Source of the DNA: Octopus sinensis
Taxonomy: Eukaryota
DNA length: 64,000 bases
Assembly (NCBI RefSeq): GCF_006345805.1
Contig: NC_043010.1
Location: forward strand, 7,564,001 to 7,628,000
Direction of reading: 5' to 3'
Shown here: piece after piece, positions 1,555-63,256 of the stretch
Position numbering within the stretch: the stretch's first letter is position 1
Layout: every line of letters starts with the position of its first letter
The notes under the pieces: generated by a model
Seen by the model: the letters and a program-made list of their open reading frames with translations, nothing else
Told to the model about the DNA's origin: nothing
Databases searched by the model: none
Made by a program: the position numbers and the translations under genes

Positions 1555-3651
1555 TTTTCCTTGCAATGTTAGCAATATTTGAACCACAGCATATGTTGCA
1601 GACAGGTAAATAATGTCCTTCTAAATGTTAACTGTAGTAAGGCAGTATTGGACTGATGATGTACAATAAGGGAGCAGGGAACTAAGTTTAACCTTTCTTG
1701 TTAAAACTATATTGCAACACAAAGAACTAAACTAAGGCCTGCTTATTGTTCTGAGTATTTAAGTTGGAAGTGTACTTAACAAATTAGTGTACTTAAGAAA
1801 TTATTTAATATTCTTGTAGTCCATGTAAAGTTTATGGTTCTTTTAGGATACACAGAAGGAGATGCTGAAATGTTCCTGGCTCTGGATAAAAGAAAATACA
1901 GGAAGATCACTTAATTATGATTTTATTGAACATATTCCCCTCTCAGATTCAAACGCTTGTTGCAGTGGCCCTTCAGTTTTTCAAAATCCTGTAAAAGAAC
2001 TCAAAGGATCAGGCCCTCAACCAGGCTTTTCACATTACCCTTAAAGCTGGAAACCTTTCAGCACCCACTCATATTTTATTCAACTAATCTTTAACTCAAA
2101 AATTAATCTTTTTGTTTTCAATAAACGAATCATATCTTTTGTTTGCATTTAAATTATTTTTGTAAGTTCTTGATATTTTAGCATTTTTTGTTTGTTCAAT
2201 TTTCAATAATGATTAAGACACCTATATAAATAACTTTGACACAGCTTTTGTTTGTGTACAGTATCAAAGTATATTTCTTAAAATTCTTGTGTTCTTTTAT
2301 CAAAGAAATGCCCTGTCTAAGATACTGAAATACGTTTTACTTCACAGCACATAAGCTTATTTTATTTTATAAATTCTATTAATACAAATATCTTTCTTGT
2401 TGTTACCTATGATCCAACATAGAAAGACATTGCAAATGCTGTATCAAGTAACATTAGTCCTTTCTATGTCACAAGTCACAAAAGCTTTCAATCGCATTTA
2501 CTGCCAAATACTAATGAATCTATATATTACCTGAGAGATTTCCACACGTGAAAGTAACTTTCTTAACACTATAACCCAGTTTATCAATTCCAATACTCTA
2601 AGTCATGAATATTATAAGAATTTAAAGAACTCAAGAAAAATAAATTCATAATTCAATGAGAAGGTAGCTTCATCTGATATAAAAATATTTGTCTAAAAAC
2701 ACTTTGAACAAAAGGTAAAAATTATTGATTTTTTTTTCTCTTTTTTTTTTATGTAGACACAAGGCCTTGAATTGTTAAAATAAGAAAAATACGATTGTAT
2801 GACATAGATGCCTTTCTCAAGGGCATTAGAGATGTTTTAACATAACATAAGATTTAACACAGGATCAATAAACATCTGCTGGTTCTCAATTTTGATGTAT
2901 CTATAAAACTTCGCCATGAAATATTTTCGGTAGAAAAACAAAATAACACACACATATACACACACACTATATATATGTGTGTGTGTGTGTGTATGTGTGT
3001 GTGTAATTCTCAGTCTTCAAATGTATGGATGAATATATCATCGCCGTCATTGTCATTGCAACTAACCTTTAATACTTTTATCCAATTGCGAGCAAGGAGA
3101 GCTTCGTAGACTAGATAGCAAGTTCCTGGCAAAAATAATTCATATCTTATTTTTCAATTCTTCGATTTAACCATTTTCACTTCATTTACATCACTAATAC
3201 TCTATAGAAAGGCATGAAGACAATTTCATTTCACTTCCCTTATAAATATGAAGAATTGTAACAATGTGAGAAATCAATATTCACTCGCCTGAAGCCACAG
3301 CACAACTCTTCCATCTATTTCCAGGTAATATATTCTATGTATTAGAAAAGCTATAGCAATGAATGTATTTATATTTTCTACTCTAAGTCTAATTTTCCTT
3401 ATAGAAATGATAAAATTATGCTGTGGCTCAAACTTTGTATACAATAAAAGATCCCAAACTTGTATTAAATCAGAGTTGATTCTATAAAAGTATATTGCTT
3501 AACCCCTTTTGTGATTGTATTTTTAATGACAGACACCAATACACATGTAGGCTTAGCTGCATGGTTATGATGTTTGCTTCAGAACCATGGGGCTTTGGGA
3601 TTGCTCCTACTTCATGGCATCTTGGGCGAGTACCTTATATTATAACTCTGA

Positions 3652-4806
3652 AGGCGGTGAGCTGGCAGAATCGTTAGCACGCCAGGTGAAATGCTGAGCG
3701 GTATTTTGTCTGCTGCTACGTTCTGAGTTCAAATTCCGCCGAGGTTGACTTTGCCTTTCATCTTTTCGGGGTCGATAAATTAAGTACCAGTTTCGCACTG
3801 GGGTCGATGTAATTGACTTAATCCCTTTGTCTGTCCTTGTTTGTCCCCTCTATGTTTAGCCCCTTGTGGGTAGTAAAGAAATAGGTATTTCGTCTGCTGT
3901 TACCTTCTGAGTTCAAATTCCACCGAGGTCGACTTTGCCTTTCATCCTTTCGGGGTCAATAAATTAAGTACCAGTTTCGCACTGGGGTCGATGTAATCGA
4001 CTTAATCCCTATGTCTGTCCTTGTTTGTCCCCTATATGTTTAGCCCCTTGTGGGTAGTAAATAAATAGGTATTTCGTCTGCTGCTACATTCTGAGTTCAA
4101 ATTCCGCCGAGGTCGACTTTGCCTTTCATCCTTTCGGGGTCGATAAATTAAGTACCAGTTTCGCACTGGGGTCGATGTAATCGACTTAATCCCTTTGTCT
4201 GTCCTTGTTTGTCCCCTCTATGTTTAGCCCCTTGTGGGTAGTAAATAAATAGGTATTTCATCTGCCGCTACATTCTGAGTTCAAATTCCGCCGAGGTCGA
4301 CTTTGCCTTTCATCCTTTCGGGGTCGATAAATTAAGTACCAGTTTCGCACTGGGGGTGTCGATGTAATCGACTTAATCCCTTTGTCTGTCCTTGTTTGTC
4401 CCCTCTATGTTTAGCCCCTTGTGGGTAGTAAATAAATAGGTATTTCATCTGCCGCTACATTCTGAGTTCAAATTCAGCCGAGGTCGACTTTGCCTTTCAT
4501 CCTTTCGGGGTCGATAAATTAAGTACCAGTTTCGCACTGGGGTCGATGTAATCAACTTAATCCCTTTGTCTGTCCTTGTTTGTCCCCTCTATGTTTAGCC
4601 CCTTGTGGGTAGTAAATAAATAGGTATTTCATCTGCCGCTACATTCTGAGTTCAAATTCAGCCGAGGTCGACTTTGCCTTTCATCCATTCGGGGTTGATA
4701 AATTAAGTACTAGTTTCGCACTGGGGTCGATGTAATCAACTTAATCCCTTTGTCTGTCCTTGTTAGTCCCCTCTATGTTTAGCCCCTTGTGGGTAGTAAA
4801 TAAATA
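3652..4806 (+). mobile_element. tRNA-derived SINE family A: one full copy plus five head-less 184-bp tandem units
   Basis: A-box TGGCAGAATCG, B-box GAGTTCAAATTC, body GCCTTTCATCCTTTCGGGGTCGATAAATTAAGTACCAG (resembles the MetaSINE central domain, from memory). Units restart at GGTATTTC at 3884, 4068, 4252, 4439 and 4623. 16-bp TSD TATATTATAACTCTGA at 3636-3651 and 4807-4822. Nested in a decayed family-B SINE. Confidence 0.93.
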
Positions 4807-4875
4807 TATATTATAACTCTGAGCCAACCAATGCCTTATAAGTGGAATCAGTACTGTATGGGAATATTTGCTCAC

Positions 4876-6448: not shown

Positions 6449-7589
6449 CAAAATAAGTCCTCTGGACATTACTGCTTTGAATCCCAGTATTCATTGGACT
6501 GGGAACCCATATTCTTCTTGGAGAGAATGCCAGTCCATTTTGGTTCAAGAATGCAACACAAGCACACCACCCAGTTTAGGAATCGAACCCACAGTTGTGC
6601 AATTGTAAGTGCAGCATGTTAACCACTAATCTACATGCTTTCACTAACACACATGGAAATAAGGGCAGAAAGTTAGCCACAGTGCTATATGTGTGGACTT
6701 TATTGAAATGGAGAACTTCAGAGAGTGATTGATGCCTTTCTATATTACAGAACAAAATACATAACAGATTTATTGAGCAATGTAACTCAGCCGAAAATTC
6801 GAAAAATCATAGTGCCTAATTTACATATTTGAGATTTGAATATATAATTAGCTCATTTGCATATTTGATTGGAATTGAATAGGTTGTTAAAAAAAATACT
6901 GCTTAATACAAATAACCAGCATACCAAGTTTTATCAGTGGATACTTACAGAATTCAAGATATTTCATTTATGCATGTTAATTAGCTACACACAATCATTT
7001 ATTGATTACCTATATATTTGCTGATAAAAATTTTCCTGCAGACCGTATTTTCAAAAGTCTGTCATACATATAGGCAATAAATTACACGTTTTGATTTGTT
7101 TATAAGCTAAAACACTTGTGATATGCTTTTTCAGTCAATTTATGTACCAATTTCTTTAAATACAAGGATTTTTAAAAACAGGAAAAAAAAAAAAAAAACG
7201 CCCTAGCTTTTTCTAGTAGTTTCTTTATTTTGAAGTAAGTCCAAAGTATGCTAATTCCAGAAGGAGTTGTCCAATTCTTACATTCTCTTATTCTTTTACT
7301 TGTGTCAGTCACTGATCCCTATCATGCTGGTGGTAGTCCTGGTAGGAGGGTGGTTGATCAAATTAACCCCAGTACTGATTCTTTTTAAACCTGGCGTTTA
7401 TTCTATCAGAAAGGACAAAAACAAACCAACACCTGTTGTCAAATAGTGAGAGACAAATAAAAAAACAAAAATTATACACACACACAAACACACACACACA
7501 CACACACACATGCACTCCCCTGAGGTGTTGTACTGTGGGAGTAAATACAAAGTCTTAAACATACAAACGTGCCTGCATCAATATATACT

Positions 7590-7943
7590 CTATTACTTGT
7601 TTCAGTCATTTGACTGCGGCCATGCTGGAGCACTGCCTTTAGTTGAGCAAATCGACCCCAGGACTTATTCTTTGGAAGCCTAGTACTTATTCTATCGGTC
7701 TCTTATGCCGAACCACTAAGTTACAGGGATGTAAACACACCAGCATCGGTTGTCAAGCGATGTTGGAGGGATAAACACAGACAGGCTTCTTTCAGTTTCT
7801 GCCTACAAAAAAACCATTCACAAGGCTTTGGTCAGCCCGAGGCTATAGTAGAAGACACTTGCCCAAGGTGCCACGCAGTTGGACAGAACCCGGAACCATG
7901 TGGTTGGTAAGCAAGCTACTTACTCCACAGCCACTCCTGCGCC
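7590..7943 (-). mobile_element. SINE family B (tRNA head with CORE-like domain; probably octopus OR2-type)
   Basis: The minus strand reads GGCGCAGGAGTGGCTGTG...GGTTCCGGGTTC...GTGGCACCTTGGGCAAGTGTCTT (CORE-like)...GCTCCAGCATGGCCGCAGTCAAATGACTGAAACAAGTAA. Confidence 0.88.
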
Positions 7944-8316
7944 TATATGTAATATTTTTTCACCAGGCATTGCTGGTTTTGGGTTCAGTTTCCTTGTGTG
8001 GCACATTGAGCAAGTGCCTTCAACTGTAGACTCAGGCTGACTAATGCCTTGCATGGGAATTTGGTCAATGGAAGCTACAAGGAAGTGTGTGTGTGTATAT
8101 ATAATATATATACACACACACATGCACATATATATATACATACATGTTGGCACTCTTAAGTTTCAAGCACAATGCTAGTCATTAGTCATCATGCTTGAAA
8201 CTCAAGAGCACCAATGGATTTGAATCAAACTATTTTGATTCATACATGTAACACCCAATAAATTAGTTGAGTGGCCTTCTTTTGTTTGTCCACTCATTGT
8301 ATATATATATATATAC

Positions 8317-10700: not shown

Positions 10701-11263
10701 CACCCAACACACATTCACACACGCACACACAAACAAACATAAATATATATGTAAACGCACAGGCAATAATAACGTGCATGCGTGTGTTTTCGATATTCAT
10801 CCGAACACACACACACACGCACGCACATTATATTCAAGCCTGGCTTTTCTAATGTTGCAGCTAGTATCGACACAGTTATTTCCCTTCATTCTAAGCGCAC
10901 TTAACACAATACTTGGTTCTCTTTCTATATCCACTACCGCCAAACAGGTTCAAAGCTTGCACTAAATTCTGATTGTCCTCTACTGAGCTTATTTTTCTGG
11001 CAATATATACAAATATGCTACTAAACTTGGGTTCTTCTGGTAAGAATGCAATTCCTAAATTTATATGCTACAAATGATTGTGATAACTGAGATGAAGAAA
11101 AAAAAAACCCGACAAAACTGCAAGACCTTCTTAAAATTGAACAGATGATGAACAGAACTAGATGCTTTCCTTCATCAGGTGGCTGGTCAAAATTAACAGT
11201 AAATTAAAAAGAGAAAAAGAATATACTTACATACGTACATATGTGCATACGTAAGTACATATA

Positions 11264-11613
11264 CTCTTTTACTGGTTTCAGTCATTTGACTGCGGCCATG
11301 CTGGAGCACCGCCTTTTAGTCGAGCAAATCGACCCCAGGACTTATTCTTTATAAGCCCAGTACTTATTCTATCGGTCTCTTTTGCCGAACTGCTAAGTGA
11401 CAGGGACGTAAACACACCAGCATCGGTTGTCAAGCAATGCTAGAGGGACAAACACACACACACATATATATATACATATATACGACAGGCTTCTTTCAGT
11501 TTCCGTCTACCAAATCCACTCACAAGGCATTGGTCGGCCCGGGGCTATAGCAGAAGACACTTGCCTAAGATGTCACGCAGTGGGACTGAACCCGGAACCA
11601 TGTGGTTGGTTAG
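11264..11613 (-). mobile_element. SINE family B copy
   Basis: Same sequence as 7590-7943, with an internal (CA)/(TA) linker. Confidence 0.88.
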
Positions 11614-11850
11614 CATATATGTACATGTATACATACATACGTACATACATATGTACATACATACATATATACAGACATACATATCTATATACTTTATCAC
11701 AACTAGAATGCATACGATCATAGGTATGCTTGATCAGAGGTTGACCTAGGGCTAAACAAAAAAAAACCCAACAGTATCCTGTCCTTAAACTAAAAGAATC
11801 TGAATAAACATGTATAGGATGACTTTGTCCAGCATGTTCTTTCCTTTGAC

Positions 11851-21310: not shown

Positions 21311-21412
21311 TAAAAAAAAGACGGAAAGCATAGTCACAATCCTAAAAAGTAACAGCTATAAGAAACATTCCTTCAACCCAATTCCACTTGTAAGGTATTA
21401 CAAAGTAGAAAA

Positions 21413-22596: not shown

Positions 22597-22987
22597 TCTT
22601 TTACTCTTTTACTCTTTTACTTGTTTCAGTCATTTGACTGCGGCCATGCTGGAGCACCGCCTTTTAGTCGAGTAAATCGACCCCAGGATTTATTCTTTGT
22701 AAGCCTAGTACTTATTCTATCAGTCTCTTTTGTTGAACTGCTAAGTTATGGGGATATAAACACACCACCATCAGTTGTCAAGCAATGGTGGGGGGACAAA
22801 CTCAGACACACAAACATATACACATATATACGACGGGCTTCTTTCAGTTTCCGTCTACCAAATCCACTCACAAGGCTTTGGTTGGCCCGGGGCTATAGTA
22901 GAATACACTTGCTCAAGGTGCCATGCAGAGGGACTGAACCCAGAACCATGTGATTGGTAAGCAAGCTACTTACCACACAACCACTCA
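22597..22987 (-). mobile_element. SINE family B copy
   Basis: Homology to the other family-B copies. Confidence 0.88.
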
Positions 22988-23594
22988 TATATATATATAT
23001 ATATATATCGTTGCTATTATGTTAAACTGTCGTATATCCAAATTTGGCCAAATACTTTTGTTTCAATATTTATTTTTGCTTGCAATGGCTGCTTCTTTTG
23101 GTCTGACTATCATATCTGCAGCTACTTCAAATGCCAAGATATCAAAATTGTCAAAGTGTAGTACAACGGTTTTGTTATGGAATGGTGAAACTATTATATA
23201 CACAAGCACTTATAGATACATATTTATATGTATGTATATGTCTATATATCCATGTATGTATACATTTTATAAACTCAATTTTTATCTTATCTCACATGAG
23301 TTTCATGCTATTGTGATCTTCAGGTCAGAGCTGCTGCAGCTCAGTTTTGGTGTGTATTTATATTCAGTGGTCTGGGTCTGTTTCTAAGTTTGTGTCTGTT
23401 CATTGTTTTCGTTTTTGTTGTAGTTGAAATGGTACACCCTTCCTACAGGACAAGTGGTATGAACCAGCCACTATAAAGTGAGACGACATCAACCAGTATA
23501 CAGTGTGGTGTGTTGGCCATTGTAGAGTTGTTGTATGAATTCTCAGTTACATGTTAATTGAGGTAGACTGTTCAAGGTGTTTCACTGTGTTAAT

Positions 23595-24602
23595 ACGTTT
23601 GTGTTTGTACACTCTGTTTATGGAAAAGAATGCTTGAATGAAAGAACTTGCAGAAGAGGGTTTGCAAAATTCAGAAGTAGAGATTTCAGTGCTGAAGATG
23701 AAGATCAAACAGGACATCCAGTTGAGTTTGATGATAAGCTCTTCGAGGCATTACTTGAAGAAAATCCTGCATTGTATAGTTCAAACTATACAACTGGTCA
23801 TCGTCATCTTCAATAACTTGGAAAGGTTCCTAAGCTTGGAAAATGGGTGCCTCATGAATTGTTGGAAAGCAACCACAAATCCCAAGTTGACATCTGCTCT
23901 TCTCTCCATTTGCGTGAACTCATTTCACCCTTTTTGGATAGACTTGTGACTGGTGATGAAAAATGGATCTTCTATCGAAAAGTTAAACGTCGTAAACTGA
24001 GGCTTGGTAAAAGGGGAAAAGCCAAACCACAACCGAGAAGAGAACTTCATGGAAAAAAGGTTCTTCTCTCTATCTGGTGGGATTGCAAAGGAGTAATTCA
24101 CTTTGAATTGTTACCACCTAATGCAACAGCAATCAATGCTCAAGTCTATTGTCAGCAACTAGAGCATTTGAACCAAGCTTTGAAGATAAAAAGACCCACT
24201 TTAGTGAATTGAAAAGGAGTGATGTCTTATCAGGAAAATGCATGACCCCACCCTGCAAAGATCTTATCACAGAAGATCGAAGAGCTTGGTTGGGAAAAAA
24301 TTCCTCATCCATCTAATTCTCCCAACCTTGTTCCTTCAGAATACCATTTGTTTTGTAGTTTACAGAATCATTTGGGGGACATAACTTTCACAAGCCAGGA
24401 GGTCGAAACTGACATTTCAGAGTTCTTCACTTTGAAACCGAAAGAGTTTTACATTGATGGGATTAAAATGCTTGTAAATGGATGGAAGGATGTCATAGAT
24501 AATCAGGGAAAGTACATTGATGATTAAATTTCAATTAAATATAAAATTTGATCACTTGCTTTCTTTACTCAAAATTCGGACAGAACTTATGGGATGACCT
24601 GA
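23595..24602 (+). mobile_element. 5'-truncated mariner (DD34D) transposase pseudogene with right TIR
   Basis: Motifs VYGKECLNERTCRR.FAKFRS, WVPHEL, LVTGDEKWIFY, KKVLLSIWWDCKGVIHFELL, QENA*PH, SPNLVPSEYHLF, with stops and frameshifts. Right TIR ...CGGACAGAACTTATGGGATGACCTGA followed by TA. Confidence 0.93.
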
Positions 24603-27589: not shown

Positions 27590-28175
27590 TTCTTTTCTAC
27601 TATAAGCACAATGCCTGCAAATTTTGGAGGAGGAGGCTAGTCGATTACATGGAGCTTAGTACTTGACAGATACTCTACTTTATTAACCCTGAAAAAGATG
27701 AAAGACAAAGTTGACCACAGTGGAATTTGAACTCAGAGTGTAGCGGCTGACGAAATACCTATTTCTTTACTACCCACAAGGGGCTAAACACAGAGAGGAC
27801 AAACAAGGACAGACAAACAGATTAAGTCAATTATATCGACCCCAGTGCGTAACTGGTACTTATTTAATCGACCCCGAAAGGATGAAAGGCAAAGTCGACC
27901 TCGGCGGAATTTGAACTCAGAACGTAGCAGCAAACAAAATACCTATTTCTTTACTACCCACAAGGGGCTAAACACAGAGAGAACAAACAAGGACAGACAA
28001 ACAGATTAAGTCGATTATATTGACCCCAGTGCGTAACTGGTACTTATTTAATCGACCCTGAAACGATGAAAGGCAAAGTCGACCTTGGCGGAATTTGAAC
28101 TCAGAACGTAACGGCAGACAAAATACTGCTAAGCACTTCGCCTGGCGTGCTAACGATTCTGCCAGTTTGCCACTT
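27590..28175 (-). mobile_element. SINE family A array: head-bearing unit, one 184-bp unit, and an older different-tail unit
   Basis: Junctions GAAATA|GGTATTT on the minus strand at 27943/27944 and 27759/27760. Confidence 0.88.
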
Positions 28176-28239
28176 TCAATGATAATAATAATAATGACGA
28201 TGATGATTATGATGATGATGACGATGATGATGATAACGA

Positions 28240-32077: not shown

Positions 32078-32117
<40 letters not shown>

Positions 32118-32257
32118 ATATAATAATATAATAATAAATAATAATTTGGCGCGCTGTTAGTTGGGGCATTTGAATTATAACGTCGGATGTAATCATTGAA
32201 CCACACGCGTATTTATCGTTATGGTAAAATCTGGCGTGCGATTGAGTGGATTTCATC

Positions 32258-32353
32258 CAGATAGTTTTGGCTGAGGAGCTACAAGTGGATTTTTTTGTAA
32301 GTAATATTACATTTAATTCATTAATAGCGAAACCATTGTCCCAAAATAATCTG
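32258..32353 (+). ncRNA. Type-I hammerhead ribozyme motif, copy 1
   Basis: CAGATag TTTTGG-CTGAGGA-GCTA...TAGC-GAAAC-catt-GTC-CCAAAA ta ATCTG. Predicted cleavage after C32340. Confidence 0.75.
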
Positions 32354-32787
32354 TATTTTGTTATTTTTTATTTGCCCTGTCCGTGTGAGCTAACAATCGT
32401 ACTGACTTTCATGGGAAACATGTATCTTTGTGGTTGAAACCTTTTGGATTAACTGGTGCTAGAGTGAGCCTATAGTGACCACTCTCTTATATTTTTTTGT
32501 AAAAATATTATAATATTATAAAATATTATAATAATCCAGGTTTCTCGGAGCACTAGGCCACTTGGTGTAGAATAGATATACTATTAAATTAGTATCTAAT
32601 TCTCTCACCCTTATTAATTAATTATAATTATGCTGCATTTATTTCTAAATGCTGTATTTGTTTTCCGTGAAAATTTGGCGCGCTGTTAGTTGGGGCATTT
32701 GAATTATAACGTCGGATGTAATCAATTGAACCACACGCGTATTTATCGTTATGGTAAAATCTGGCGTGCGATTGAGTGGATTTCATC

Positions 32788-32883
32788 CAGATAGTTTTGG
32801 CTGAGGAGCTACAAGTGGATTTTTTTGTAAGTAATATTACATTTAATTCATTAATAGCGAAACAATTGTCCCAAAATAATCTG
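32788..32883 (+). ncRNA. Type-I hammerhead ribozyme motif, copy 2
   Basis: Same as copy 1, but with a palindromic stem III/loop ACAATTGT. Predicted cleavage after C32870. Confidence 0.8.
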
Positions 32884-33151
32884 TATTTTGTTATTTTTTA
32901 TTTGCCCTGTCCGTGTGAGCTAACAATCGTACTGACTTTCATGGGAAACATGTATCTTTGTGGTTGAAACCTTTTGGATTAACTGGTGCTAGAGTGAGCC
33001 ATATAGTGACCACTCTCTTATATTTATTTTGTAAAAATATTATAATATATTATAAAATATTATAATAATCCAGGTTTCTCGGAGCACTAGGCCACTTGGT
33101 GTAGAATAGATATACTATTAAATTAGTATCTAATTCTCTCACCCTTATTAA

Positions 33152-33181
<30 letters not shown>

Positions 33182-35132: not shown

Positions 35133-35505
35133 CAGGAGTGGCTGTGTGGTAAGTAGCTTGCTAACTAGCCACATGGTTCTGGGTTCAGTCCCACTGCGTG
35201 GCATCTTGGGCAAGTGTCTTCTGCTATAGCCCCGGGCCGACCAATGTCTTGTGAGTGGATTTGGTAGACGGAAACTGGAAGAAGCCTGTTGTATATATGT
35301 ATATATATATATATGTACGTATGTGTGTGTGTGTTTGTCCCCCTAGCATTGCTTGACAACCGATGCTGGTGTGCTTATGTCCCCGTCACTTAGCGGTTCG
35401 GCAAAAAGAGACCGATAGAATAAGTACTGCGCTTACAAAGAATATGTCCCGGGGTTGATTTGCTCAACTAAAGGCGGTGCTCTAGCATGGCCGCAGTCAA
35501 ATGAC
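35133..35505 (+). mobile_element. SINE family B copy
   Basis: CAGGAGTGGCTGTGTGGTAAG...GCATGGCCGCAGTCAAATGAC. Confidence 0.88.
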
Positions 35506-36729: not shown

Positions 36730-37090
36730 TACTCTTTACTCTCTTTTACTTGTTTCAGTCGTGTGACTGTGGTCATGCTGGAGCACCACTTTTAGCCGAG
36801 CAAATCAACTAGTACTTATTCTATCGGTTTCTTTTGCCGAACCACTAAGTTACAGGGATATAAACACAACAGCATCGGTTGTCAAGCGATGCTGGGGGGA
36901 CAAACACAGACACACACACATATACATATATACGGCGGGCTTCTTTCAGTTTCCGTCTACCAAATCCATTCAGAAGGCTTTGGTCGGCCCAAGGCTATAG
37001 TAGAAGACACTTGCCCAAGGTGCCACGCAGTGGGACTGAACCCGGAACCATGTGGTTCGTAAGCAAGTTGCTTACCACATAGCCACTCCC
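36730..37090 (-). mobile_element. SINE family B copy
   Basis: Homology to the other family-B copies. Confidence 0.88.
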
Positions 37091-38984: not shown

Positions 38985-39430
38985 AATATATATATATCTG
39001 TGTGTGTGGGAGAGAGAGTGAGTGTGTGTGGTGTGTACATGTTTAAAAATTAATTGTTGTATATCATTAAAGCATGTAGACACTGATAGAAACAAAACAA
39101 AGCAAAAAAACAATAGAACGGTTACTTAGGATCACTCTTTCTCCCCATTGAAAACTCAATGAACCAATAACTTGTCCATCGGAAAACCTGTAGCCAACAA
39201 TGCTGGACCCTCTGTTGGTCAAGGTTGACCATGCATCTGCACATGTATGTGCAAGACTGAACAAGAATTTTTGAGGAAAACTGGTTGTTACGCATACTTG
39301 CAGGTTCCTCTTTTACTTGACTTTTATGTTTTTCCAATGAAAAGTTCACCAACTTGGACTGCTAAAGCTTGGTACCAATGTTTTGCAAAGAATTGGAACA
39401 GATGCTGTGAGATATCTTACCTGTACCATA

Positions 39431-39845
39431 GGTGCAGGAGTGGCTGTGTGGTAAGTAGCTTGTTTACCAACCACATGGTTCCGGGTTCAGTCCCATTGCA
39501 TGGCACCTTGGGTAAGTGTCTTCTACTATAGCCTCGGGCCGACCAAAGCCTTGTAAGTGGATTTGGTAGACGGAAACTGAAAGAAGCCCGTCGTATATAT
39601 GTATATTATATATATATATATATGCATGTGTATGTTTGTGTGTCTGTGTTTGTCCCCCTAGCATTGCTTGACAACCAATGCTAGTGTTGTGTTTATGTCC
39701 CCGTTACTTCGCAGTTCGGCAAAAGAGACCGATAGAATAAGTACTGGGCTTACAAAAGAATAAGTCCGGGGTCGTTGCTCGATTAAAAGGCGGTGCTCCA
39801 GCATGGCCACAGTCAAATGACTGAAACAAGTAAAAGAGTAAACGA
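39431..39845 (+). mobile_element. SINE family B copy (full length)
   Basis: Runs from the head through to the GTAAAAGAGTAAA tail. Confidence 0.9.
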
Positions 39846-41312: not shown

Positions 41313-41354
41313 TCCAGACTGATGATGAGTAAAACTCAGAAACATGTCTCTGGA
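41313..41354 (+). ncRNA. Canonical minimal type-I hammerhead ribozyme motif
   Basis: TCCAGA-CTGATGA-TGAGT aaa ACTCA-GAAAC-at-GTC-TCTGGA. The core is perfect, stem I is 6 bp, stem II is 5 bp, stem III is the palindrome ACATGT, and the cleavage site is GUC. Distal stem-I extension CCAGCTA (41292) / TAGCTGG (41363). Confidence 0.88.
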
Positions 41355-58673: not shown

Positions 58674-59322
58674 TATATATATATAACCGTAATACACACA
58701 GTAGTTAAATATCTACGTATGATGTGTCTACTATATGTATATATATATATATACACAGTAATTAAATATCTACGTATGATGTGTCTACTATATATATATA
58801 TATATATATATACATATAGTAGACACATCATACGTAGATATTTAATTACTGTGTGTATTACGGTTTTAGAATAAGTAAGCTGTGTTTCTATGTGTTCTAA
58901 GAGGTGGTTGAAAAGGGTTGGCAACAAGAAAGACGCCATAAAAGATTGCCTTATAAAATAGGAACCATGATGACTATGAAACTGTCGTGGAGGCTTGTCA
59001 AAACTAACCTCACCACTTTAGCGAGGAAAACAGCCTAAACATTCGGAAGACACAGAGATAGTTGAAAAGGGAAGGAGGGGCGCGGAGACCATAAGCATCT
59101 GAAAATAAAGCCTAGTAAAAGTGGCATCAGAAAACCACAAAGGAAGGTGATTCGGTAATATTCAGGAATGAACGGGGGAGGAAGATAATGGAAAAGCATG
59201 AGGCTGGTTAATGACCAGGAAATATGGATGGAGGAGATTGAGCCGCTTGCTGTGTAAGTACAGCCGCACTGTATCGCAGATGTTGATTGATTCCCACATT
59301 AAATAATATTTGTCGTAACTCA

Positions 59323-59735
59323 TTTACTCTTTTACTTGTTTCAGTCATTTGACTGCGGCCATGCTGGAGCACCGCCCATTAGTCGAGCAAATCGACCCCG
59401 GGACTTATTCTTTTTGTACGCCCAGTACTTATTCTATCGGTCTCTTTTGCCGAACCGCTAAGTGATGGGGACGTAAACACACACCAGCATCGGTCGTCAA
59501 GCAATGCTAGGGGGACAAACACAGACACACAACACACACACACACATACATACATATACATATGCATATATACGACAGGCTTCTTTCAGTTTCCGTCTAC
59601 CAAATCCACTCACAAGGCACTGGTCGGCCCGGGGCTATAGCAGAAGACACTTGCCCAAGATGCCACGCAGTGGGACTGAACCCGGAACCATGTGGTTGGT
59701 TAGCAAGCTACTTACCACACAGCCACTCCTGCGCC
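59323..59735 (-). mobile_element. SINE family B copy (full length, young)
   Basis: Close to consensus, with CpGs retained. Confidence 0.92.
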
Positions 59736-60315
59736 TACTGAGAATACTTCTTAGTTTAATTATTTTGCTTAAGTAACAAACTTTCCTATAGAAGTCACTA
59801 AGGTATAAATTTATATCTCATGGTTCTGCATGTTTTACATTCCTGGTTAAATTTCATTTTTATTACATTGGTCAAGGAATAGAAGTTGCATCCATTCTCT
59901 TAATAGGCCTTCCCTGACTAAATGAGATCATTTTTATTGTTTTTTTGTTGTCCTGATCAAGGTCAATTCTGATCCAGCAGAATTAAGATCAATAACATTC
60001 AAACCTTGCCTATTATGTCTTCTGTCTTTCCCTTGAGTATAATGCATTTAAATATTATTCCATGTGTCTTCCTTTTTTAATACAGCAGGGTGTAATTTGG
60101 GAAAGATTTGGCAGGTACTTATGGCAGATCAAATGACCACAAAAGGGCTCTCATATTTAGTGTTCTCATTTAACCCCGAGATCCACATCAGCCCCGACCG
60201 AAGCATCCAAGCTTTATGAAGTAAAGAATTCAAGCTATGACCATCCTGCCTTTTATTCAGACACAGCAAAATTTTGGACAAATTAATCAGTATGTCCCTT
60301 TAGTTAAAGATATTA

Positions 60316-60697
60316 GGCGCAGGAGTGGCTGTGTAGCTTGCTTACCAATCACATGGTTCCGGGTTCAGTCCCACTGTGTGGCACCTTGGGCAAGTGTCTT
60401 CTACTATAGCCTCAGGCCGACCAAAGCCTTGTGAGTGGATTTTGTAGACGGAAAGTGAAAAGAAGCCCGTCGTATATATGTATATATGTGTGTCTGTGTT
60501 TTTCTCCCCAACATCGCTTGACAACAGATGCTTGTGTGTTTATATCCCCTGTAACTTAGCAGTTCGGCAAAAGAGATCGATAGAATAAGTACTAGGCTTA
60601 CAAAGAATAAGTACTGGGATCGATTTGCTCGACTAAAGGCGGTGCTCCAGCATGGCCACAGTCAAATGACTGAAACAAGTAAAAGAGTAAAAGAGTA
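60316..60697 (+). mobile_element. SINE family B copy (full length)
   Basis: AGGCGCAGGAGTGGCTG...GTAAAAGAGTAAAAGAGT. Confidence 0.9.
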
Positions 60698-62866: not shown

Positions 62867-63060
62867 GCTCTTTTACTTGTTTCAGTCATTTGACTGCAGC
62901 CATGCTGGAGCACCACCTTTAGCCGAGCAAATTGACCTCAGGACTTATTCTTCGTAAGCCTAGTACTTATTCTATTGGTCTCTTTTGCTGAACTGCTAAA
63001 TTACAGTGACGTAAACACACCAGCATCGGTTGTCAAGCGATGTTGAGGGGACAAACGCAG

Positions 63061-63093
<33 letters not shown>

Positions 63094-63256
63094 CATATAT
63101 ACGATGGGCTTCTTTCAGTTTCCATCTACCAAATCCACTCACAAGGCTTTGGTCGGCCCAAAGCTATAGTAGAAGACACTTGCCCAAGGTGCCACGCAGT
63201 GGGACTGAACCTCGAACCATGTGGTTGGTAAGGAAGCTACTTACCACACAGCCACT
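62867..63256 (-). mobile_element. SINE family B copy nested in a family-A-related SINE (62722-63330)
   Basis: The host is interrupted after GGAATTTGAGC and resumes with ...GCTAGGCATTTCGTCCAG. Confidence 0.82.

Follow-up and report, generated by a model that had tools for sequence, protein, structure and literature searches.

A two-unit insert with a predicted type I hammerhead in each unit, probably a non-LTR retrozyme, in the genome of Octopus sinensis

A 1.92-unit insert at positions 32143-33160 of a 64,000-nt stretch of the Octopus sinensis genome (contig NC_043010.1; hereafter the window, whose numbering is used throughout) is probably a non-LTR retrozyme, the plus-strand RNA of which would cleave itself into monomers of 530-535 nt that are circularised and copied back into (TA)n sites, probably by Penelope-like enzymes. 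Each copy of the unit carries a complete type I hammerhead by sequence and predicted fold, with cleavage predicted, and, if active, the element would represent an abundant family of ribozyme-made circular RNAs in an octopus genome. The features of the locus are as follows:

32081-32142, no strand assigned: left (TA)n/TAA-rich tract, the likely target site together with slipped junction sequence
32143-32626, plus strand: unit copy 1, which has four small deletions when set against copy 2 or most of the family
32258-32353, plus strand: first type I hammerhead, with its core at 32271-32277 and 32329-32332, cleavage predicted after C32340 and a loop III that is not palindromic
32341-32870, plus strand: predicted cleavage-to-cleavage monomer of 530 nt (circle 67% paired, z -5.1)
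32627-32671, plus strand: 45-nt segment found once only, a normal part of the family unit, with a 7-bp hairpin
32672-33160, plus strand: unit copy 2, its terminal AT-rich palindromic stretch merging into (TA)n
32788-32883, plus strand: second type I hammerhead, with stem II at 32808-32858, a palindromic stem/loop III at 32862-32869 and cleavage predicted after C32870
33157-33182, no strand assigned: right (TA)13 tract, which shares TATA with the end of the insert

The two units start at 32143 and 32672 and lie head-to-tail at a spacing of 530 bp, and an identical stretch of 276 nt recurs at this spacing within them. Two near-identical units of this size in a (TA)n tract had been reported in the original prediction, and this was confirmed: copy 1 was found to differ from copy 2 by four deletions (1+1+1+2 nt, five bases in all), two of which are in or adjoin short runs, and by a sole substitution (C at 32334 in copy 1, A at 32864 in copy 2). 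Copy 2 ends at 33160, the equivalent of 32626, while the 45 nt from 32627 to 32671 occur once in the window; the insert (1,016 bp) is thus made up of a whole unit and a second one without its last 45 nt. Both flanks are (TA)n, so that no target-site duplication is readable there, and the right end of the insert and the target have TATA in common (microhomology). The GC content of the element was 33%, the observed/expected CpG ratio was 1.0 for the element compared to 0.45 for the window, and the longest ATG-initiated open reading frame (ORF) around the circle on either strand was 52 amino acids, in keeping with the earlier description of the units as CpG-retaining and non-coding. No Pfam match was obtained for the two reading frames overlapping the element, no LTR, primer-binding site (PBS) or polypurine tract (PPT) was seen within it (PBS and PPT judged by eye), and no further copy of the unit was found in the 64-kb window using blastn and nhmmer.

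Hammerhead core positions C3-A9, G12-A15.1, U16.1 and C17 were canonical in both copies, pairs 10.1-11.1 (G-C) and 15.2-16.2 (C-G) were intact in both, and the cleavage triplet GUC ends at 32340 in copy 1 and at 32870 in copy 2. Stem I consists of 13 positions (11 Watson-Crick pairs, one G.U and one A.A), and in the fold of the full dimer the pair probability in cis was at least 0.89 at 11 of the 13. Stem II is a rod-like structure of 51 nt with 17 bp in three helices (4+8+5), and stem III is composed of 2 bp with a tetraloop. An intact type I core in each unit, an 11-of-13-bp stem I and an unusually long rod-like stem II of about 50 nt had all been read from the letters beforehand and were recovered here. 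The same is true of the palindromic stem III of copy 2, for which self-pairing of the helix III palindrome was calculated at -6.4 kcal/mol, compared to -0.9 kcal/mol for the variant in copy 1.

A type I descriptor matched 3 times in the window, counting both strands, compared to 0.10 matches on average and never more than 1 in 50 shuffles. The hammerhead folds were calculated at -25.4 kcal/mol each (z -3.5 and -3.4), and the monomer gave z scores of -6.0 as a linear molecule and -5.1 as a circle, the latter being far more stable on the plus strand (-142 compared to -114 kcal/mol). In the full dimer, stems I and II both formed in cis with high probability, and the active fold, in which stem III is formed, lay 2.7 kcal/mol above the minimum. 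The probability of stem I pairing in trans between the two copies was 0 in the fold model, so that only the helix III palindrome and precedent point to a dimeric fold. No Rfam family matched the window at the gathering threshold, and over the element no hammerhead family was matched up to an E value of 10 (3 chance matches were returned, E 2.9-9.6), probably because of the 51-nt stem II. As this long stem places the terminal loop 17 bp from the core, the canonical contact between loop 1 and loop 2 may be absent, and a 2x2 internal loop found after the first 4 bp of stem II could instead face the G.U and A.A positions of stem I. The element would thus provide a naturally occurring type I hammerhead in which stem II is greatly lengthened, a form that Rfam misses and that descriptors written for short helices likely would miss as well.

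According to the available text of a recent preprint (bioRxiv 10.64898/2026.07.22.740005), a non-LTR retrozyme is defined by two or more consecutive units in tandem, in each of which a complete type I hammerhead folds below -5 kcal/mol. The element shows the tandem arrangement, hammerheads well below that energy, a GC content under 50%, an absence of coding capacity and membership of a multi-copy family, and the retrozyme-like layout proposed for it from the tandem units and their hammerheads is therefore upheld. As far as they are described in the accessible portions of PMC7229834 (coral, mussel, axolotl) and of the preprint (Xenopus and others), animal non-LTR retrozymes resemble it in their tandem, non-coding, low-GC units, in having one type I hammerhead per unit with a 2-bp helix III and palindromic tetraloop, and in a stable self-paired monomer with an unblocked ribozyme, dimers being common. 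They differ in three respects: the monomer of 530-535 nt exceeds the range of 150-450 bp given in PMC7229834, although it is inside the 51-972 bp of the preprint; helix II has 17 bp over 51 nt here, compared to the canonical 4 bp; and the A>G hyper-editing of the core set out below is not described for animal retrozymes in the available text of either source. Stem II is treated as variable and often short in the part of PMC3088659 available, with no comparably long case.

The plant LTR retrozymes described in the accessible text of PMC5680766 share two hammerheads in direct repeats, which would release one circular RNA, but their hammerheads are of type III and are separated by a middle of 300-600 bp, compared to type I and 45 bp here, and no TG...CA ends, PBS, PPT or 4-bp target-site duplication is visible in the octopus element. 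Identity as a plant-type LTR retrozyme or TRIM was ruled out by the type I hammerhead and the 45-nt middle. A search of titles and abstracts yielded no report of a hammerhead, retrozyme or ribozyme in octopus or other cephalopods, although the family may already be present in supplements or in Repbase/Dfam. The main text of PMC7229834 names no cephalopod, and the invertebrates in the available text of the preprint are three insects and a coral. In the main text, supplement apart, of a 2026 repeat annotation of Octopus vulgaris (PMC13282606), recently active Penelope families are reported and the word "ribozyme" does not occur. Both the class and its life cycle have been described before, and repeat transcripts are commonly hyper-edited, so that by default the element is to be read as one more example and not as a novel system; its less usual features are the long stem II and the probable editing of the core.

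The unit was present in 20 public runs from 10 studies, carrying five organism labels; half of the unit's words or more were found in 8 of them, and none of the 20 is on record as RNA. Contigs of four runs (designated X1, X9, X11 and X17) were placed on the permuted unit 32420-32950, and the other 16 runs were only counted. For run X1, the kind of which is not recorded and the size of which suggests genomic DNA, 3,421 contig pieces were placed, and 2,780 (81%) of these were at least 95% identical to the unit. Its summed depth was 2.4e5-1.3e6 (not a copy number), with 3.5-3.9e5 over the 45-nt segment, the same order as over the rest of the unit, and the share continuing into unlike sequence was 0. 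These data indicate that the family is young and abundant.

The head-to-tail junction was covered in all four of the runs placed (for example by X11 record 10 and X9 records 25-26), and in X17 a contig of 563 nt (record 17) returned by 530 and closed on itself, giving about 533 nt. The head-to-tail or closed form is therefore a property of the family and not of the one assembly, and an assembly duplication, named in the original prediction as a refuting condition, is unlikely at family level; contigs of this type reveal neither ends, strand nor circularity, and tandem DNA would equally yield a closed contig. The self-closing contig had a depth of about 9 and was one of 8 pieces in a run with another organism label; it could stem from a circular RNA, from a relative with few copies or from traces of host DNA. 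For the family as a whole the monomer comes closer to 533-535 nt, and the exact 530-nt monomer originally predicted applies to this locus (32341-32870), 530 being specific to 32143-33160. In addition, one X11 contig was found to leave the unit at 32614, 12 nt from 32626, the equivalent of the right end of the insert in the window, and to run into (TA)n. A joint that goes back by 530 in X1 and X11 was discarded as evidence of tandem structure, since it joins positions internal to the unit and is uninformative alone, and a dip in X9 depth at the cleavage site was discarded as evidence of cleavage, the same dip being present in X1. No place where many molecules start or stop was listed in the runs placed, and exact-pattern scans of metagenome contigs and viral contigs gave no match.

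Among the variants listed for X1, X11 and X17, those in the core fell only at N7, a free position. The remaining hammerhead variants were a change of the G.U pair to A-U, three loop changes, one break in stem I belonging to a minority subfamily and one insertion just outside stem I. The invariant core is thus conserved among copies of the family, so that the refuting condition of the original prediction, a core not conserved among copies, does not apply. The loop III variant of copy 1 was not listed at 5% in any of the four runs; the palindrome is therefore the family norm, and the non-palindromic loop III of copy 1 is a rare variant or an error. Minority alleles common to both copies were also observed (for example C at 32769, about 7% in X1). 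Separately, a diverged subfamily was noted in the loose ends of X11 (register 32796-32844), with a different stem II sequence and other alleles at N7 and in stem I.

Runs X9 and X11 are guessed to be RNA; the organism label of X9 differs from that of X1, while X11 has the label of X1. At places listed for X9 which were absent or at most 0.3% in X1, 16 of 17 changes were A>G on the plus strand, with one C>T and no T>C; two more A>G places in X9 were also present in X1 and were set aside as polymorphisms. The binomial probability of A>G versus T>C in X9 was 1.2e-6 but was given no weight, as the sites share contigs (about 3-4 of low depth) and are not independent. Hyper-substituted (A>G) loose ends accounted for 5 of the 6 listed in X9 and 1 of 6 in X11, compared to 0 of 6 in X1 and 0 of 4 in X17. 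Judged by eye, 27 of 34 adenosines were read as G in the five X9 ends, along with four other changes, and 6 of 8 in the single X11 end. Core adenosines A13, A14 and A15.1 (32860-32862) were changed to G in 9%, 9% and 14% of the X9 depth, respectively, compared to 0, 3 and 0 of about 6e5 in X1. A 5' G neighboured 1 of 16 A>G sites versus 23 of 151, and a 3' A 8 of 16 versus 49 of 151; these numbers are too small to carry weight, and the trend points in the direction described for invertebrates in the available text of PMC5625713.

Dense, strand-biased A>G clusters are described as the signature of ADAR hyper-editing in the same portion of PMC5625713, and it is suggested that a minority of transcripts is hyper-edited in this way. 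As the clusters are confined to the hammerhead strand, sense transcription of that strand is also suggested. The changes are spread over the whole unit and affect adenosines whether paired or not, a pattern more like general hyper-editing than targeted control. We consider it very unlikely that editing of A13, A14 and A15.1 acts as a switch locking circles or precursors against cleavage, with stem II as a landing rod for ADAR. If true, such a switch would be the missing block on circles of PMC7229834, the available text of which holds that a mechanism other than self-pairing must block the hammerheads in animal retrozyme circles and mentions editing only as a possible source of heterogeneity; it would also represent a natural ribozyme under RNA-editing control, likely enough in a cephalopod. 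No literature on editing of a retroelement ribozyme was found by title or abstract. Editing of the core bears on what keeps retrozyme circles from recutting, and with this element the inactivation of a genomic ribozyme by A-to-I editing could be tested directly.

Following the life-cycle model and precedent in the accessible text of PMC7229834, PMC4209133 and bioRxiv 10.64898/2026.07.22.740005, a multimeric plus-strand transcript would cut itself at every hammerhead, with dimers probably forming through the palindromic helix III; the 530-535-nt monomer would be closed into a circle by a host ligase, for instance RtcB; and a Penelope-type reverse transcriptase (RT)/endonuclease would prime at a nicked (TA)n site and travel round the circle more than once. 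The insert begins about 200 nt ahead of the first predicted cleavage site and runs on for about 290 nt past the second. A linear cleaved monomer was therefore not the template, which must have been a circle or an uncleaved multimer unless the insert arose at the DNA level. The minority alleles common to both copies fit one template copied twice, and also fit local duplication. Caution is warranted in that, as far as the preprint could be consulted in its available text, in vitro cleavage was seen for only 1 of the 9 retrozyme dimers from Xenopus.

The element is probably a non-autonomous derivative of a Penelope-like element (PLE), and its closest alternative reading is that the units are the pseudo-LTRs (pLTRs) of an autonomous PLE, the locus being an insertion truncated at its 5' end, of which only the tandem pLTR and the tail remain, in which case the hammerhead would process the full transcript and no small circle would be made. 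The pLTRs of PLEs (Penelope/Poseidon, Neptune, Nematis) have type I hammerheads with a palindromic helix III and a longer helix II (PMC4209133, available text), and PLEs form partial tandems with a one-sided tail of 30-40 bp and a preference for microsatellites (bioRxiv 10.1101/2021.04.23.441226, available text), which the 45-nt segment and the (TA)n site fit. Helix I, however, has 13 positions here as against 4-5 bp in PLE hammerheads, and helix II greatly exceeds the 7-8 bp found in minimal PLE hammerheads. Screening of 114 of the 115 non-simple window ORFs of at least 70 amino acids against Pfam gave no match to RT or GIY-YIG domains, so that no ORF with both domains beside a pLTR, by which an autonomous PLE is recognised, was found among them. 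The pLTR reading is further opposed by the depth of the 45-nt segment in X1, by the absence there of any continuation into unlike sequence and by the X17 contig, which closes without an ORF. Contigs break at branches, and a minority link to such an ORF may lie among the 53 loose ends beyond those listed; we regard the pLTR reading as unlikely.

A satellite-like repeat spread by DNA-level duplication of an old pLTR, with the hammerhead as a non-cleaving passenger and the edited RNA as read-through, would accommodate the 8 of 9 Xenopus dimers that were inactive and the local tandem amplification discussed in the available text of the same preprint (bioRxiv 10.64898/2026.07.22.740005), as well as the hyper-editing of repeats that is common in animals (PMC5625713, available text). 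Alleles common to both copies are likewise expected of local duplication, but rolling-circle copying of one template also yields them, and the variants avoid the invariant core with most stem pairs kept, the CpGs are retained and the insert sits in a microsatellite as a dispersed copy of 1.92 units; this origin is judged quite improbable. That the locus is single-copy, with the dimer at 32143-33160 produced by assembly duplication, is least probable of all and appears highly improbable: the differences between copies are mostly small deletions, two of them in or near short runs, as in long-read errors, but the join crosses the 45-nt segment, which is single in the window and a real part of the family in all four runs, and which duplicating one copy would not create. 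The retrozyme reading is accordingly preferred.

An unrelated, compact type I hammerhead-like motif was also observed at 41313-41354 on the plus strand, with predicted cleavage after 41348. It has a full core, a 6-bp stem I, a 5-bp stem II and a palindromic minimal helix III, and in these respects resembles the minimal hammerheads of Penelope pLTRs; it is single in the window with no RT ORF nearby, and 38 of 300 shuffles were as stable, so that its fold is not significant.

No tRNA was predicted in the window by ARAGORN, and the only credible Pfam matches among the 114 ORFs were mariner/Mos1-type transposase fragments at 23562-24209 on the plus strand (PF01359, E 6e-24; PF17906, E 2e-4). A SINE-like repeat, which we take to be an octopus SINE family, has a 184-bp part in head-to-tail arrays at 3651-4812 (6 copies) and 27639-28178 (2.4 copies), with solo copies near 21411, 41512 and 45810. 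Another dispersed family, with repeats about 350-420 bp long, was represented by at least 9 copies at 76-90% identity (7583-7945, 11259-11615, 22610-22986, 35133-35505, 36741-37089, 39428-39840, 59322-59737, 60314-60689 and 62868-63256).
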